In this document: positions 34,095 through 43,550 of the stretch, in pieces
Numbering within the stretch: position 1 is the first letter of the stretch
Layout of the letters: each line of letters starts with the position of its first letter
Source: a bacterium
GTDB taxonomy: Bacteria > Actinomycetota > Acidimicrobiia > Acidimicrobiales > Bin134
Length of the DNA stretch: 64,000 nt
Direction: 5' to 3'
NCBI GenBank assembly: GCA_026709025.1
Contig: JAPOTT010000008.1
Span: 4,848-68,847 of the forward strand
Notes under the pieces: model-generated
Databases searched by the model: none
What the model was told of the DNA's origin: nothing
The model's input: the letters and a program-made list of their open reading frames with translations, nothing else
Program-made: the position numbers and the translations under genes

Positions 34095-34165
34095 GGTCTA
34101 CACAATACCGCCTACAGCTGGAAGTCTCAACCACAACTTGAGACATAATGTGCGGAATGCTAAGT

Positions 34166-34233
34166 GGGCTCGCTGCGTGGGCTTGCTGCGTGTGACTCAC
34201 TGCGTGAGGTCGCTGCGTGGACTCGCTGCGTGG
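34166..34233. repeat. About 13-bp imperfect tandem repeat x5 (CTCGCTGCGTG core)
   Basis: Visible between pgsA-like gene and gcvH. Confidence 0.85.
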
Positions 34234-36693: not shown

Positions 36694-36915
36694 CCTGTCA
36701 GAAGCAAATTTACAGTCATCTTATACAGGAATTGATTCGGGCGTTAGCTAAATAATCTCACACATCTGATCTCAACGCAAGCGAGATTCCTTGTTTGTGG
36801 AGACACCATGGGTTATATTGAGGAGGCAACAGATCATCAATGATGACGGAACGCATAGTGATAGTGTAAGGTGACATTCCCTACTAAAATATCACATCCA
36901 GGCTGAGGAGTAACC

Positions 36916-38456
36916 ATGAGCCGAGAGAGAGAGAGAGAGAGAACGGGATTCCCAACTGGGAAAACCGCACTCTGTTCCACGGTGACAACCTCAAGTTCTT
37001 GAGGGGAATGAACTCTGGCACCGTCCACCTAATCGCCACCGATCCGCCATTCAATAAAAATCGCGATTTCCATGCTACACCCGACAGCATCTCAAAGGGA
37101 GCCAAGTTCAAAGACAGGTGGAGATGGGAGGAGGACATCCACGAGGAGTGGGTAGACCAAATCCAAGACGACTGGCCTGCAACTTGGGCAGTGATAGAAG
37201 CATCTAAACAAGCATTCGGCAGTGACATGGCAGCGTTCTTGTGCTGGCTAGGTGTTCGCCTAATGGAGATGCACCGAGTACTCAGAGACGACGGCAGTAT
37301 CTACCTTCATATCGATCACACCGCCCACGCTTACGTCAAAACCTTAATGGACTCCATCTTCGGGCGCGAGAACTTTCGCAATGAGATTGTCTGGCACTAT
37401 GGAAAAATGAGCAACACAAGTCGCAACTTTCCTTCTAACCATGACACCATACTCCGATACACAAAATCAGATACATACACTTTTCATCCATTAAAGGGTG
37501 GCGAATCTGAATACAGAGAACGGTTCAAGCGGTACTTGAAAAATAATAAAATTCTATATGGTGCAGTTAAGAACTCTAGAGATAAACTTATTTTAGGACG
37601 AGCCAAAAAAGTGTCCAAGGAACTTGGCAGACAGCTAGTAGATTCAGATGTGTTATTCGATTTTGACAAAGAATACAAGATTCAGTCTGATGTCATCTAT
37701 GTATCAATTATTAAAGGAAACTCATCCGAAAACATGAACTACCCCACGCAAAAACCGGTGACACTGTACAATAAACTTGTTACCGCGTCTAGCAATCCAA
37801 GAGATATTGTCTTAGACCCTTTCTGTGGATGCGCTACCACTCCTGTCGTAGCTGAAACCTTAGGAAGACAATGGGTAGGTATGGATATTTGGGAAGGGGC
37901 ACACAAAATGGTCATGCAACGTCTGGTGCAAGAAGGATTAGCTACAAACGCAGTTGCATCTGATCGATTAATAACTTTTGGTGACGTTACATTACGTTCA
38001 GATATTCCGACCCGAACGGACGATAACGAAGTGGCCGCCCCTAAGTTTGAGTTGAGAACTCAGAGAGCTGCTGACCCTTGGCAGCGCTTAGCAAACAAAA
38101 CTATCAAGAATATTTTGGCAGAAGCTCAGAAAGCCCCTAATGGAAAGATATGGTGCGCTGGATGCGGTCGCAGTTTAGAGATTGAATTCATGCACCTCGA
38201 TCACATTCTCCCTAAATCTGATAGAGGTGATAATTTCATCACCAACCGCGTTTTGTTGTGCGGCCCCTGCAATATGAGGAAAGGTGATAAGCTTACAATG
38301 CGAGGACTACATGGCGACAATAAAAAGCAAAAATGGATGGCTAACGAAACGAGAGCAAAGGACGCTGGAAATAATGCGCGCGATCTAGCGTATAAAGTGA
38401 AAGATGAATGGGGTTCAATGGAGATTGAACTGCTAAAACATCGAGCTGTAGAGTAG
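36916..38456 (+). CDS. Site-specific DNA methyltransferase (beta-class order) fused to C-terminal HNH endonuclease; frameshifted at (GA)10, candidate phase-variable gene
   Basis: GAGGAG RBS + ATG 36916 are out of frame with NWENRTLFHGDNL...TDPPF...YPTQKP...LDPFCGCAT; C-terminal CAGC...HLDHILP...N...CGPCN. Confidence 0.8.
36923..36942 (+). repeat. (GA)10 simple sequence repeat
   Basis: Directly visible 4 nt after ATG 36916. Confidence 0.97.
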
Positions 38457-38490
38457 GGCTTTTGTGTTACTTGGTTGCTTAGGTGCAGCG

Positions 38491-38530
38491 CTATATTTCT
38501 AAGATTTTTGAAAAAATCTTAGAAATATAG
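38491..38530. repeat. AT-rich near-perfect palindrome, 19-bp arms
   Basis: CTATATTTCTAAGATTTTT-GA-AAAAATCTTAGAAATATAG. Confidence 0.95.
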
Positions 38531-38547
38531 TTGTTTTTGGGTGGATA

Positions 38548-38569
38548 TGTCACAGGGTGCTTGTATACT
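38548..38569 (+). promoter_or_regulatory. PafBC/RecA-NDp-type promoter of the DUF222-HNH gene
   Basis: TGTCAC-N10-TATACT, 7 nt before ATG 38577. Confidence 0.6.
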
Positions 38570-38576
38570 TACAAGC

Positions 38577-40001
38577 ATGGATTTTCGGGATAGTTCAACT
38601 GTTAAAACTGAGCCAACCACTACAGAGTGCTTGAACGATCAAACCCAAACATTTGCGGGTTTTGATTTTATTGATTTTGCTGGTTGTGGTGCTGGTGATC
38701 TTGTGATGTTGGCTGTGCGGGCTAATGCTTTTCGCCAGCAGGTTGAGAGTTATTTGAGTGCTGTGTTGGTGCGGTTGGGTGAGTTGGAGGGTGAAGACGC
38801 TGTGATTTCTGTGTGTAAGCAGTTTGATTTGCCTGCGTATAAGGCTCGTCGTCAAGCGCGTACTGCTAAAGGGCTTAGGGTGCTGCCTGATGTGATGCGG
38901 GCCGCTAAGGATGGTTGGATCACCATGGATCATGCCGAGTTGATGGCTGCGTCGCATGGTCGGGCTCCCATGAACACTGATGAGCAGTTAGACCTGCTAG
39001 CTATAGGTGTGCAACAAGGCCCTGATGTGTTCAAAGATACATTGGCTAAGTATGAGGTGAAACGCTTAGCAGATACAGGGCTGAACCCCACAGAACAACA
39101 ACGCGCCCGGCGTACCGCCAAAATATTCAACGGCGATAACGACATGGTTATCCTGCACGCTGAACTAGACCATGTTGCTGGTGAGCGGGTGAAAACCGCT
39201 ATGGACGCGTTAACCACGCGCATGCTCAAACGCGATTTCCAAACCGGTGTAGAACGCTCCTTTGAACAACGCAACGCCGACGCTTTAGTGCAACTCATCA
39301 CAACCCACACCACACCAGCGGAATACGGTTCTGGGATTGGCAAGGCAAGCAGCACCGATAGACGCAACACAGGTGACACCAACAACACAAGAAACAGCCA
39401 TGCTCACCGATCGCAACAAACCGCAAAACACCAAAACACCTCTGACAAAACCAACAGAGCATCAGACAGTGATCGCCCCAACCAAATTGCCGAAGACGAC
39501 AGACATGCAGGCAATAGTTGCTACGAAGGCTGTACCGACACAAACACCGGCTGCGAGCCAGCCCCAGAACCAACCCCGCAGGCAACCACCATCATCCTTA
39601 CGGCTGATTATGATACCATCACCGGTCAACTAACAGCCGCAGGGCTTATAGACGGCACACCCATCGGGATAGACGAAATCCGCCGCCTAGCCTGCGAAGC
39701 GGAGATAATACCGATGATCTTCAACAGCGAGGCCCAACCCCTCTACTTGGGTCGCACACGCCGCAAACACACCAAAGCCCAAAAACTCGCCCTCTACAAA
39801 CGAGACAAACGCTGCACCTCATGCGGAATACGCGCCAGCAGCTGCGACGTACACCACATCGTACCCTGGGAACACGGCGGCACAACCGACATCTCCAACC
39901 TCACCCTGCTATGCCCCACCTGCCACCGCCAAACCCACAAACACCCGTCACACTCCCCCCCCTCCCCCACAACCAAACAGACTCTAGAGCCCCATAGCTA
40001 A
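38577..40001 (+). CDS. DUF222 + HNH endonuclease (13E12/REP13E12-like)
   Basis: QRNADAL, RRLACEA, PLYLGR, RDKRCTSCG...DVHHIVPWEHGGTTDISNLTLLCPTCH. Confidence 0.85.
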   Translation: MDFRDSSTVKTEPTTTECLNDQTQTFAGFDFIDFAGCGAGDLVMLAVRANAFRQQVESYLSAVLVRLGELEGEDAVISVCKQFDLPAYKARRQARTAKGLRVLPDVMRAAKDGWITMDHAELMAASHGRAPMNTDEQLDLLAIGVQQGPDVFKDTLAKYEVKRLADTGLNPTEQQRARRTAKIFNGDNDMVILHAELDHVAGERVKTAMDALTTRMLKRDFQTGVERSFEQRNADALVQLITTHTTPAEYGSGIGKASSTDRRNTGDTNNTRNSHAHRSQQTAKHQNTSDKTNRASDSDRPNQIAEDDRHAGNSCYEGCTDTNTGCEPAPEPTPQATTIILTADYDTITGQLTAAGLIDGTPIGIDEIRRLACEAEIIPMIFNSEAQPLYLGRTRRKHTKAQKLALYKRDKRCTSCGIRASSCDVHHIVPWEHGGTTDISNLTLLCPTCHRQTHKHPSHSPPSPTTKQTLEPHS

Positions 40002-40621: not shown

Positions 40622-40726
40622 ACCGCACGGCTCAACCGGTTATTTTAAGCGCCACCATGCTCATTGCTGTAATTGCCACACAGCCAACGCCAAATCTGTC
40701 TCACTTGGCCGGTAATGTCAACACTC

Positions 40727-42772
40727 ATGGTAAACCAACCAGAACTAGCCCCACAACCTGCCATTGCAGAACCCAGCAGTACAGAACCTGCCAATGTGAT
40801 CGCACCTGATCGGCCTCTGCGAGTAGCGGTGTTGGCCAAGCAGATCCCGGTGGTTGAGAACATGCAGTTAGGCCCCGACGGTCGCTTGGTGCGTGACGGC
40901 CTAGAGATGCACATGAACGACTACTGTCGCCGTGCTGTAGCCAAAGGCACTGAAATCGCCCATGCCAGCGGCGGCACGGTTACCATCTTCACCCTCGGCC
41001 CCCCGCTCGCTGAAAACGTGTGCCGCGAGGCAATCTTGTATGGGGTAAACAACGGCATTCATATTTGCGATCCTGCCTTCGCTGGTTCCGACACTTGGGC
41101 CACCGCCAAAGCCCTAGCCGCCGCCCTAAAGCGTTTCGGCCCTTACGACTTGGTGCTGATGGGCCGTAATTCGGTGGATGCCGATACCGGTCAGGTGCCG
41201 CCGCAGGTAGCGGAGATGCTGGACTTACCGTTTGCTACCGGTGTGCGCTACTTCTCACTGCAAGGCGACCAAGCCCAACTACGCCTCGAACATGACGATC
41301 AATGGGTGGATGTATCGGTGCAACTGCCAGCGGTGCTGTCTTGTGCCGAACGACTGTGCGACCCCTGCAAAATCAAAGACCCAACAGCTTGGGCCACCGT
41401 TGATACTGCTCTAATTCAAACCGTGAGCGCTGCCGAACTCGGCGATGGACCTTGGGGTCAAGCTGCTAGCCCCACCTCAGTTGGCCCGGTACACACCATA
41501 CAGGTGCAACGCCAGCGCCAAATGCTCACTGGCACCCTGGAAGAACAAGCAGACCAAGCAGTAACACTGTTAACTCAGATGGGTGCCTTAGATGACACTC
41601 CCACCCACACCGCTGACACTGTGGTGGATTCACGCAGGGTGGATACACACGGGAACGCAATTCCATCACAGCCAACAAACCCAACCCAACCAAACAGCAC
41701 CCTGAGCGGCCCAGCAGTTGGCCCAGCAGTTACGGTGCTAATAGAACCCGGGCGAGACCGCATCAACAAAGAGCTTTTGGGCACAGCCGCGGCACTAGCA
41801 GCCAAGATTGACGGATGGGTGGCGGCGATAGGCCCAAACCTAGATGAAACCAACTCAGATTTAGGCCAATGGGGTGCAGATCAACAAATCAGCATCAATG
41901 CAAGCGCAACTGGCAACATCACCGACACCGTCACTGCCAACGCACCTAGCAACATGGTTAACAAAAACCCAGCTACACAACCCACACCACAAGACATAGC
42001 CTCTGTAATTAGCACTTGGGCTAACAACACGCAGCCGTGGGCAGTGCTGGCAGCTGGTACTGCTTGGGGCCGAGAGGTGGCAGCGCGCATGTCTGCCACC
42101 CTCAACGCCGGGCTAACCGGCGATGCTGTAGAGCTAAAAACAAACACCGAGGGCAGGCTGATTGCTCTAAAACCCGCATTTGGAGGCCAGATGGTGGCCG
42201 AAATCCTGTGCTCCTCGCCCATTCAGATGGCCACGGTGCGCCCGGGAGTGCTGCCGCTGCTTGCCCCAAACCCAAACCGTCCCAAAACACACCGTGCCTC
42301 GCTAACCTCACCGCAAAACAGCCGACTCAAGGTGATTGCTACACATCAAGAAGACGACAGCAACGAGCTAGCCAACGCTGCGGTGGTGATCGGCGTGGGT
42401 CAAGGGGTTGACCCAAACGATTACCCCATCCTAGAAACACACCGAGTGGCTATCGGAGCTGCTATTTGTGCTACCCGCAAGGTAACCGATTACGGCTGGA
42501 TGCCTCGTGCCCGTCAAGTGGGCATTACCGGTCATAGCATCAGCCCGCAGCTATATTTGGCCATCGGCACCAGCGGCAAGTTCAACCACACCGTAGGGGT
42601 GCGTAATGCAGGAACTATCCTGGGTATCAACCCCGATCCCCAAGCCCCGTTGTGGGATGTTGCAGATATCGGCATTGTGGGCGACTGGGCCCAAGTGTTT
42701 GCTGTGTTGATACCTCGTTTAGCAAAAGCTCAATCCTCCAATACCCTCAATCCTCCAATACCACTGTCATAA
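40727..42772 (+). CDS. Fused electron transfer flavoprotein beta/alpha
   Basis: N-half KQIP, AGSDTWATA, GRNSVDADTGQV (beta); C-half KPAFGG, ATVRPG, QVGITG, GTSGKFNH (alpha). Start uncertain (40673/40715/40727). Confidence 0.88.
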   Translation: MVNQPELAPQPAIAEPSSTEPANVIAPDRPLRVAVLAKQIPVVENMQLGPDGRLVRDGLEMHMNDYCRRAVAKGTEIAHASGGTVTIFTLGPPLAENVCREAILYGVNNGIHICDPAFAGSDTWATAKALAAALKRFGPYDLVLMGRNSVDADTGQVPPQVAEMLDLPFATGVRYFSLQGDQAQLRLEHDDQWVDVSVQLPAVLSCAERLCDPCKIKDPTAWATVDTALIQTVSAAELGDGPWGQAASPTSVGPVHTIQVQRQRQMLTGTLEEQADQAVTLLTQMGALDDTPTHTADTVVDSRRVDTHGNAIPSQPTNPTQPNSTLSGPAVGPAVTVLIEPGRDRINKELLGTAAALAAKIDGWVAAIGPNLDETNSDLGQWGADQQISINASATGNITDTVTANAPSNMVNKNPATQPTPQDIASVISTWANNTQPWAVLAAGTAWGREVAARMSATLNAGLTGDAVELKTNTEGRLIALKPAFGGQMVAEILCSSPIQMATVRPGVLPLLAPNPNRPKTHRASLTSPQNSRLKVIATHQEDDSNELANAAVVIGVGQGVDPNDYPILETHRVAIGAAICATRKVTDYGWMPRARQVGITGHSISPQLYLAIGTSGKFNHTVGVRNAGTILGINPDPQAPLWDVADIGIVGDWAQVFAVLIPRLAKAQSSNTLNPPIPLS

Positions 42773-42776
42773 CCAA

Positions 42777-43550
42777 ATGACCACCACCGACACACCAGCC
42801 GATCAACCAGATCACCCGAATCAACCAGATCAACCAGATCAACCAGATCAAGCCAATCAAGCCGATCACCCAGATCAAGTAGCAGCATTGGTGCCCGCAG
42901 CCACTGTGGTGTTGTTGCGCGACGGCACTAACGGTTTGGAAACCCTTATGATGAGGCGCAACTCCAAGCTGAGCTTCGTGGGCGGTATGTGGGTGTTTCC
43001 AGGTGGTCGAGTAGACGATGCCGACTATCCCCCTAACAACCCCAGCGACGTATACACAGCTAGCCTCAACGCAGCAGTGCGTGAAGCAGCCGAAGAAGCC
43101 AACCTAACCATCCCCCCTGAACACCTAGTGCCCTACGCCCATTGGACACCACCTTTAGATTACCCCAAGCGCTTTGCCACTTGGTTCTTTTTGGCACCAG
43201 CACCACCGGGCGATGTCACCGTAGATGGAGGCGAGATACACGAACACGCTTGGTGGGCACCCAAAGAAACGCTAGCCCTTCATGCTGCTGGCGAAATTGA
43301 GATGTTGGCACCCACCTACATAACCCTTATGGAGCTTGCTCAACAACCCGACACAAAAACCGCCCTAGCTTCGGCTCGCAACCGGGCCGACAACATTCCC
43401 CACTACGCCACCCACACAGCACATGCCGCCGATCATCCCGTAGCGCTGTGGCAACAAGATGCGGGCTACGACTCTTACGATGCAGATGCTGTAGGGCCGC
43501 GACATCGCCTAGCCATGAAACCTGGTGGCTGGCGGTTTGAACAAACATGA
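42777..43550 (+). CDS. NUDIX hydrolase
   Basis: PAATVVLLRD, WVFPGGRVD, AAVREAAEEA, HWTPP...RFATWFF; N-terminal DQP repeats. Confidence 0.88.
   Translation: MTTTDTPADQPDHPNQPDQPDQPDQANQADHPDQVAALVPAATVVLLRDGTNGLETLMMRRNSKLSFVGGMWVFPGGRVDDADYPPNNPSDVYTASLNAAVREAAEEANLTIPPEHLVPYAHWTPPLDYPKRFATWFFLAPAPPGDVTVDGGEIHEHAWWAPKETLALHAAGEIEMLAPTYITLMELAQQPDTKTALASARNRADNIPHYATHTAHAADHPVALWQQDAGYDSYDADAVGPRHRLAMKPGGWRFEQT

Follow-up and report, generated by a model that had tools for sequence, protein, structure and literature searches.

A candidate phase-variable methylase-HNH gene, OFF as assembled, behind a (GA)10 tract in a sponge-associated actinobacterium

In host-adapted pathogens, repeat-driven switching of DNA methylases is textbook knowledge, and predictions of it exist for Type I and Type III restriction-modification systems. 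Among the closest described systems are single-chain Type IIG enzymes of Campylobacter and Helicobacter, in which a repeat tract, mostly poly-G, gates one polypeptide that combines both activities; their nuclease is an N-terminal PD-(D/E)XK domain and their methylase belongs to the gamma class. The locus analyzed here lies in a 64-kb stretch of contig JAPOTT010000008.1 ("the window"), from an uncultured sponge-associated actinobacterium, and consists of a (GA)10 tract placed at the very start of a gene which encodes a DNA methylase fused to an HNH nuclease. It differs from the Type IIG enzymes in that a beta-class methylase comes first and the HNH domain follows. We consider it likely, from the sequence, that this gene encodes a single-chain methylase-nuclease which is phase-variable by slipped-strand mispairing and is currently OFF, i.e. 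out of frame.

Type III systems offer a second comparison. The passages of PMC5909438 at hand report a survey of Type III mod genes in which 662 of 3805 contain repeats, GA[n] tracts among them, in species some of which are environmental, including one Corynebacterium. An earlier note on this DNA, made from the letters alone, had described methylase phase variation as established mostly in host-adapted pathogens; the confinement to such hosts needs correction, repeat-bearing mod genes being catalogued in environmental bacteria as well (PMC5909438, same passages). As in these phase-variable mod genes, a repeat inside the coding region would switch a beta-class N6-adenine methyltransferase by slippage, and the window protein aligns in part with EcoP15I Mod. 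Unlike them, the locus has no adjacent Res gene, the HNH nuclease is fused to the methylase, the tract lies two codons after the start, and the host is an uncultured sponge-associated actinobacterium. The frame logic, (GA)10 versus (GA)9 or 12, is that of M.MmyCI of Mycoplasma mycoides subsp. capri: PMC3498834 describes an AG/GA tract in a methyltransferase coding region, of which the 12-unit allele terminates just past the tract and is inactive, while a 10-unit clone restores the frame and the activity. That enzyme belongs to a Type III system with a separate Res, from a mollicute pathogen, and its switching was shown experimentally, whereas that of the present locus is proposed from its sequence. 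Finally, the solitary beta-class methyltransferases M.MboIIA, M.RsrI, M.BceJIV and CcrM, whose structures are solved, are the best matches by sequence and fold over residues 1-330 and share the DPPF/Y motif and the motif order IV...I; none of them has an HNH domain, unlike the window protein.

Anatomy of the locus and integrity of the downstream frame

The elements of the locus are the following.

36905..36910, + strand: Shine-Dalgarno-like GAGGAG, 5 nucleotides (nt) before the ATG, read directly from the sequence
36916..37002, + strand: frame opened by ATG 36916 as assembled, 28 codons, MSRERERERTGFPTGKTALCSTVTTSSS, ending at TGA 37000-37002
36923..36942, + strand: (GA)10 simple sequence repeat at which slippage is proposed to act as a switch; 9 or 12 units would bring the methylase into frame
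36945..38456, + strand: methylase-HNH reading frame, 503 codons and stop, open upstream to 36888
37023..37913, + strand: beta-class N6/N4 DNA methyltransferase domain (Pfam PF01555, E 1.7e-40, residues 46-342 of P0001)
38154..38291, + strand: HNH nuclease domain, CxxC...DH...N...CxxC (Pfam PF01844, E 2.2e-08, residues 423-468 of P0001)
38490..38531, + strand: terminator-like hairpin 3' of the gene, a 19-pair stem followed by a T run, from a consensus scan only

The first three of these, which the earlier note had pointed out, are found in the letters exactly as it described them. The start codon occupies 36916-36918 and the perfect repeat begins two codons after it. The methylase frame is closed upstream by a TAA at 36885-36887 and is open from 36888 on, reading ...PRERERENGIPNWENRTLFHGDNLKFL... 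/ ...PRERERENGIPNWENRTLFHGDNLKFLRGMNSGTVHLIATDPPFN...; no start codon of this frame lies between that TAA and the tract. The listing of open reading frames (ORFs) and their translations agree with the earlier note that its first ATG, GTG or TTG is TTG 36999 (ORF 36999..38456). Since 29 nt separate the ATG from the first methylase-frame codon past the tract (36945), one GA unit fewer or two more restores the frame: (GA)9 and (GA)12 fuse the ATG to the 503-codon frame by frame arithmetic, as had been proposed, and (GA)10 and (GA)11 do not. A non-canonical start at ATT 36948, past the tract, was considered and rejected because this ATT is not conserved in three related copies (L002, L004, L029). 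Two attributes of a contingency locus are present here: the reading frame contains a perfect simple sequence repeat whose unit length is not a multiple of three, and a change in repeat number toggles between a full-length and a truncated frame. The tract is also the sole period-2 array among the 55 Tandem Repeats Finder rows of the 64-kb window; by simple arithmetic, any given perfect dinucleotide run of 20 nt should occur about 1e-4 times or less in a genome of this size. A promoter scan returned 5 promoter-like sites against 3.9 expected, none of them usefully placed 5' of ATG 36916.

The domain assignments are well above threshold (139.8 bits versus a cut-off of 26.7 for N6_N4_Mtase PF01555; 34.5 versus 21.4 for HNH PF01844). 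DPPF (motif IV) is near the N-terminus and DPFCGCATT (motif I) comes after it, giving the order IV...I. PADLOC assigned the gene to Type II and Type III methylase models only, and NCBIfam gave nothing above threshold, the sub-threshold matches being to methylases and to Cas9/IscB-HNH. The closest solved structures in the Protein Data Bank (PDB), by sequence and by fold, are MboIIA, RsrI, CcrM, M.BceJIV and EcoP15I Mod for the methylase, and the HNH part resembles Cas9/IscB-type HNH domains; among the PDB matches listed, none spans both methylase and HNH. The methylase-HNH family is large, with 7446 of the 8000 scored candidates at E<=1e-30. In the phage collection none of the 171 matching records, and in the plasmid collection none of the at least 5000, covers at least 80% of the protein: these matches concern the methylase part only, with at most 67% cover and at most 35% identity. 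Viral contigs gave no match to a degenerate pattern of NWENRTLFHGDN, the conserved N-terminus of the methylase. No ResIII or helicase domain was detected by Pfam in the 13 flanking proteins scanned, and the adjacent Res gene which characterizes Type III restriction-modification is not found at the locus.

Judging from its sequence, the reading frame past the tract has been kept whole by purifying selection. Its 503 codons contain no stop, and in an alignment of 47 sequences (the window protein and 46 relatives) all invariant columns are kept: D33, P34, P35, F36, D291, P292, F293 and G295, within DPPF and DPFxGCATT, and the HNH set C404, C407, D419, H420, N434, C439 and C442. Against the closest copy, in genome G012 of the same genus, dN is 0.063, dS 1.885 and dN/dS 0.03; this is the only measurable pair, nearly all others having saturated synonymous sites and 40-89% protein identity, a saturation which precludes computing dN/dS for most pairs. 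The tract is pure in every lineage despite the saturated synonymous sites between copies. As to the N-terminus, most of the 120 best relatives begin M-x-x-P-N-F-x-N-R-T-L-Y-H-G-D-N, a few residues before the conserved motif. A degenerate pattern for the same N-terminus, run on metagenome contigs, found one locus (L151), a repeat-free homologue starting MGRKTENARPNWENR, which served as comparator only.

Tract length and position in relatives

The tract was then compared among 40 species genomes of the genus (homologue threshold E<=1e-40, copies counted by hand). A homologue is present in 7 of these genomes, for a total of 15 gene copies: 9 have a repeat at the 5' end, 5 have none, and the N-terminus of one is not assessable. 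The repeats, G000 being the source genome of the window, are as follows.

Dinucleotide tracts (7): G000 (GA)10; G007 (GA)15, (GA)14, (GA)9 and (TC)8; G012 (GA)14; G025 (GA)13
Poly-G tracts (2): G062 G14; G012 G8

The seven dinucleotide tracts are spread over four species and range from 8 to 15 units. Each starts 0-4 codons after an ATG, itself preceded by a purine-rich ribosome-binding stretch, and the tract occupies the same codon position in copies whose proteins share no more than 43-89% identity. In L002 and L031, stops close both frames other than that of the ATG just before the tract, the one in the methylase frame being a TAA. A position that is conserved while length is not is the signature of a contingency repeat. 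The earlier note had named homologues that begin at the equivalent of ATG 37008, with an invariant tract, as a refutation; tract-free homologues start 4-12 residues before NWENRT instead, and the tract varies as above, so the refutation fails. One further repeat was seen near a copy: (AGTC)9, a tetranucleotide repeat at L029:967-1002 (G007), some 500 nt past the point where one methylase-HNH paralogue ends.

The DNA of the window was also found in sponge metagenome runs from three studies, compared at the level of contigs only, with 36916-36951 masked as repeat and the position of indels not printed. Contigs of run X1, possibly the source data, are identical over 2.2 kb at a depth of 18.9. In run X2, from another study, a 562-letter contig aligns to 560 letters of the window (36745-37304) and differs by 2 gap letters and 0 substitutions, and no substitution separates X1 from X2 over the 2.2 kb compared. 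The two extra letters of X2 probably lie in the tract and give (GA)11, a placement we infer; this length would also be OFF, in the other wrong frame. Contigs of run X4 end at 36914 and resume at 36952, and those of X6 are fragmentary and partly divergent, one joint having other letters between; X6 and the depth gaps in X4 and X6 were not used as evidence.

Outside the genus, we considered the 80 best loci of a genome collection, nearly all from metagenome-assembled genomes and named as Dehalococcoidia, Phototrophicaceae, Aggregatilineales, Chloroflexota, some Acidimicrobiales, and Alpha- and Gammaproteobacteria. Repeats capable of shifting the frame occur within the 155-nt 5' zone in 12 of the 80 loci, versus 19 in the remaining 331,885 nt, a 17-fold enrichment (binomial p 4e-10, the loci not being independent). 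Seven of the 12 lie between the start codon and the conserved N-terminus (C8, G12, G9, C8, G10, an 8-mer repeated five times, and C8); the other five lie upstream of an in-frame start, four of them, in Phototrophicaceae loci, being poly-C of 9-17 nt between conserved flanks and the fifth (CA)30. In four genomes of this kind the copy numbers at E<=1e-30 are 5, 5, 4 and 21. In the richest, G067 (named as Alphaproteobacteria, the genome of L101), 20 of the 21 methylase-HNH paralogues stand behind the same kind of leader, its repeats being 8-mers, 7-mers or 5-mers. In 13 of them the repeat is (GACAGTCC)n, with n=5 in seven, n=4 in three, n=3 in one and n=2 in two; the other eight comprise two single-unit copies, three (CAGTC)18-22, one (CACCTCTC)7, one (GACAGCC)4 and one repeat-free copy. 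This leader is far better conserved than the enzyme bodies, which have 40-61% identity to the query, and copying or constraint of the 5' cassette is suggested by this difference.

Alleles in frame do exist: L191, one of the G067 copies, with three octamer units, and L185 with C11. L185 (in G066) carries two poly-C tracts, C12 about 35 nt 5' of the start (382-393, coding strand) and C11 just after the Shine-Dalgarno and ATG, in frame (428-438); the pair may act as a double gate on transcription and translation. Among the 16 G067 copies whose leader frame could be determined, L191 alone is in frame, and among homopolymer alleles L185 is in frame, L024, L045 and L068 are out, and five are ambiguous.

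Taken with the intact ORF and the probable X2 variant, the variation of the tract across species and paralogues favours the proposal of the earlier note that the gene is a phase-variable switch, OFF as assembled. The mechanism we propose is as follows. Translation would begin at ATG 36916, run through (GA)n, read as Glu-Arg repeats, and enter the conserved N-terminus of a single-chain enzyme made of a beta-class N6-adenine or N4-cytosine methyltransferase and a C-terminal HNH nuclease. As the tract is a dinucleotide repeat, slipped-strand mispairing during replication would add or remove 2-nt units, so that one length in three (9, 12, ...) would give the full protein and the others would stop after about 28 codons. 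The population would then carry a heritable, reversible and stochastic ON/OFF switch of a methylation-plus-nuclease activity. To judge by its domains, the ON enzyme would methylate specific sites and cleave or nick unmodified DNA through its HNH domain, and the activity would most plausibly be a self-contained restriction-modification defence rather than a regulatory one.

Other explanations for the out-of-frame tract

Several observations weigh against a phase-variable switch. All seven dinucleotide-tract alleles of the genus are OFF as assembled; losing exactly one unit would restore the frame in six of them, and gaining one would do so in the truncated G012 copy. The two lengths for the source species, 10 and probably 11, are likewise both OFF. 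Over all loci, 2 of 27 clear cases are in frame when 9 are expected from random phase (binomial about 0.002, computed by hand, paralogues not being independent). Some tract-bearing copies are decaying, since one in G012 matches residues 11-177 only and one G007 copy has an internal stop. Variation of the tract length within the source species is a probable difference between contigs, the X2 letters being assigned to the tract by inference, and no companion gene decides between defence and regulation. The shortage of in-frame alleles fits strong selection against the ON state and could also signal another mechanism; selection against ON in the bulk population is the simplest account.

One such mechanism is recoding, by which some insertion sequences keep their transposase low. 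The out-of-frame arrangement would then be the normal one, and a little full-length enzyme would be made constitutively through RNA polymerase slippage or a one-unit ribosomal hop, which would hold a potentially self-toxic nuclease at low level. Beyond the rarity of in-frame alleles just described, it agrees with this that six of the seven dinucleotide alleles, and the poly-G/poly-C alleles L024, L045 and L068, share a methylase frame at -1 relative to the ATG, and that a GA repeat encodes Glu-Arg whichever frame is used, which lets a tRNA re-pair perfectly after a 2-nt shift. The relation is not general, however: it does not hold in L003, in the probable (GA)11 of X2, which is in the other wrong frame, or in the G067 octamer copies, where n=5 is in one wrong frame and n=4 in the other. 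An 8-nt slip of the RNA-DNA hybrid is implausible, no X XXY YYZ slippery heptamer occurs in the 28-codon frame (36916-37002), and in-frame alleles with the same leaders exist (L191, L185). Because the source species, probably, and the octamer copies are each found in both of the wrong frames, we regard recoding as improbable.

Decay of the gene is about equally unlikely. Here a microsatellite would have expanded in a dispensable, horizontally acquired gene and inactivated it, and the link with defence genes would reflect loss at no cost. The uniformly out-of-frame tracts of the genus and the truncated and interrupted copies mentioned above are what decay predicts; G+C is lower at the locus (0.45-0.50 versus about 0.55), which also adjoins a multicopy DUF222-HNH element, and passages of PMC12008989 report pseudogene accumulation in sponge-associated Acidimicrobiia. 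A gene in decay would hardly have kept 503 stop-free codons with all family-invariant residues, nor a dN/dS of 0.03 to its closest copy where other pairs are synonymous-saturated. Nor would decay explain that the tract keeps its codon position, Shine-Dalgarno and ATG in copies 43-89% identical, or that the 5' placement recurs in other phyla with unrelated repeat types.

It is very improbable that the tract is in frame in reality and misread through an assembly or sequencing error. The genome is in 56 contigs and has obvious poly-G artefacts beside scaffold gaps, but the X1 contigs, an independent set though possibly from the same data, give the identical 2.2 kb at the depth cited, a 20-nt repeat is far shorter than a read, and three other species with single-contig genomes have the same out-of-frame design. 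Equally remote is internal initiation at TTG 36999 or ATG 37008, raised in the earlier note as re-initiation, which would yield a working shorter enzyme and make the tract irrelevant: gene callers do start there (P0002, 482 amino acids, MNSGTV..., is the called product of the window) and the calls for 9 of the 120 best relatives lack a comparable part of the N-terminus, but such a product is unlikely to be active because it would lose the invariant N4, R8, D14 and N15 which precede ATG 37008 (Met22), together with a strand (9-12) and a helix (15-21) predicted at a pLDDT of about 87-89 by an AlphaFold model whose overall mean is 80; eight residues conserved at 90% or more (N7, T9, L10, H12, L16, L19, R20, G21) also precede Met22, itself an internal conserved residue that is Ile in some copies.

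Genomic context, other repeats and significance

The neighbours of the gene are two ORFs of no known family on the other strand and the DUF222-HNH gene. In the source genome such a gene lies directly 3' of three different DNA methylase genes:

window 38541-40001, + strand: DUF222+HNH gene beside the methylase-HNH gene
G000 contig C27 (L164:2410-3651): DUF222+HNH gene beside a methylase
G000 contig C56 (L150:2341-3720): DUF222+HNH gene beside a methylase

With 20 matches in about 16 places of the 2.2 Mb genome, this family looks like a multicopy selfish element landing beside, or travelling with, methylase genes. Farther along the window, one 699-residue ORF (40673-42772, + strand) with an ETF domain, in two matched stretches, and an ETF-alpha FAD-binding domain may, by its sequence, be a fused beta-alpha electron transfer flavoprotein. 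In-frame 9/27-nt repeats are present at the start of a NUDIX gene (42797-42879), and 13/27-nt repeats 5' of a CDP-alcohol phosphatidyltransferase gene (34164-34233).

The source genome (2.195 Mb, 56 contigs, 95.7% complete) contains 11 dinucleotide repeats of at least 5 units, and the four with at least 9 units are all in defence-type genes. Besides the (GA)10 tract these are the following, each in a gene that is out of frame as assembled.

C24:42935-42968: (CT)17, splitting a large ORF 3' of class-V aminotransferase and DUF4007 genes, an arrangement known from Ssp-type phosphorothioation systems
C3:71301-71330: (TG)15, inside an Eco57I-family methylase, beside a PLD/SNF2 helicase
C56:1814-1831: (CT)9, inside an EcoRI-methylase-like gene, beside a GmrSD-HNH gene

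Twelve isolated homopolymers of at least 12 nt were examined: methylase genes are touched by three of them (an N6_Mtase at its 5' end, an HsdM internally, and a DUF1156 gene), and genes for fn3, RTX and Calx-beta proteins by another three. Poly-G/C clusters of up to 50 nt (C4:92082-92135, C16:22914-23073, C18:151175-151241, C44:21614-21802) were rejected as switches; they adjoin stretches of N and most likely arose through errors of sequencing or scaffolding. Over the genus, (GA)9 or longer is present in 23 of the 40 genomes. Counting one locus per genome, the ORF with the tract has a restriction-modification Pfam domain in 13 of the 23 (Type_ISP_C, ResIII, Mrr_cat_2, N6_Mtase, Eco57I, EcoRI_methylase, methylase-HNH), the other 10 having no Pfam match. 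In four species, Type ISP-like restriction genes carry the tract at one conserved internal site (...EMLP-(GA)n..., about position 1501 of L121, L128, L137 and L138, from G033, G061, G031 and G017), with 20, 21, 13 and 9 units; the 21-unit allele appears to be in frame, L121 and L137 not. As for repair, the 95.7%-complete genome has NucS, whereas MutS was not found in it. Repair of the NucS type is not known to act on small indels, and such repeats would then be unstable.

A wider reading, which we put forward as tentative, concerns sponge bacteria of at least three phyla (Actinomycetota, Chloroflexota, Pseudomonadota). They may hold libraries of methylase-HNH genes, up to 21 per genome, each behind a hypermutable repeat and nearly all of them silent in the majority genotype, so that the population would express shifting combinations of restriction specificities as a distributed immune repertoire. 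The ON state would be kept rare on this reading, a fused nuclease being costly in an unmethylated cell, and the shared leaders on divergent paralogues would reflect a repeat-bearing 5' cassette maintained or copied between genes.

The mechanism itself is already known; as far as full-text searches show, what is new is the enzyme family, the host and habitat, and the recurrence in multiple phyla and multiple copies. These searches listed no paper that connects phase variation with sponge symbionts or with metagenome-assembled genomes. The passages of PMC12008989 seen here describe restriction-modification genes and pseudogenes as enriched in sponge-associated Acidimicrobiia, and the words "phase", "tandem repeat" and "frameshift" do not occur in those passages. 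At this locus a known device would gate a fused methylase-HNH protein which was not found in the phage and plasmid collections searched. Its host is an uncultured symbiont of sponges, which filter viruses in very large numbers, and the pattern is seen again, with repeats of unrelated types, in other species, paralogues and phyla. If the switch is real, hypermutable repeats would let populations of sponge symbionts hedge their defence against phages, much of what looks like pseudogenes in these genomes would consist of contingency genes in the OFF state, and the methylation motifs used for metagenome binning could vary within one strain.

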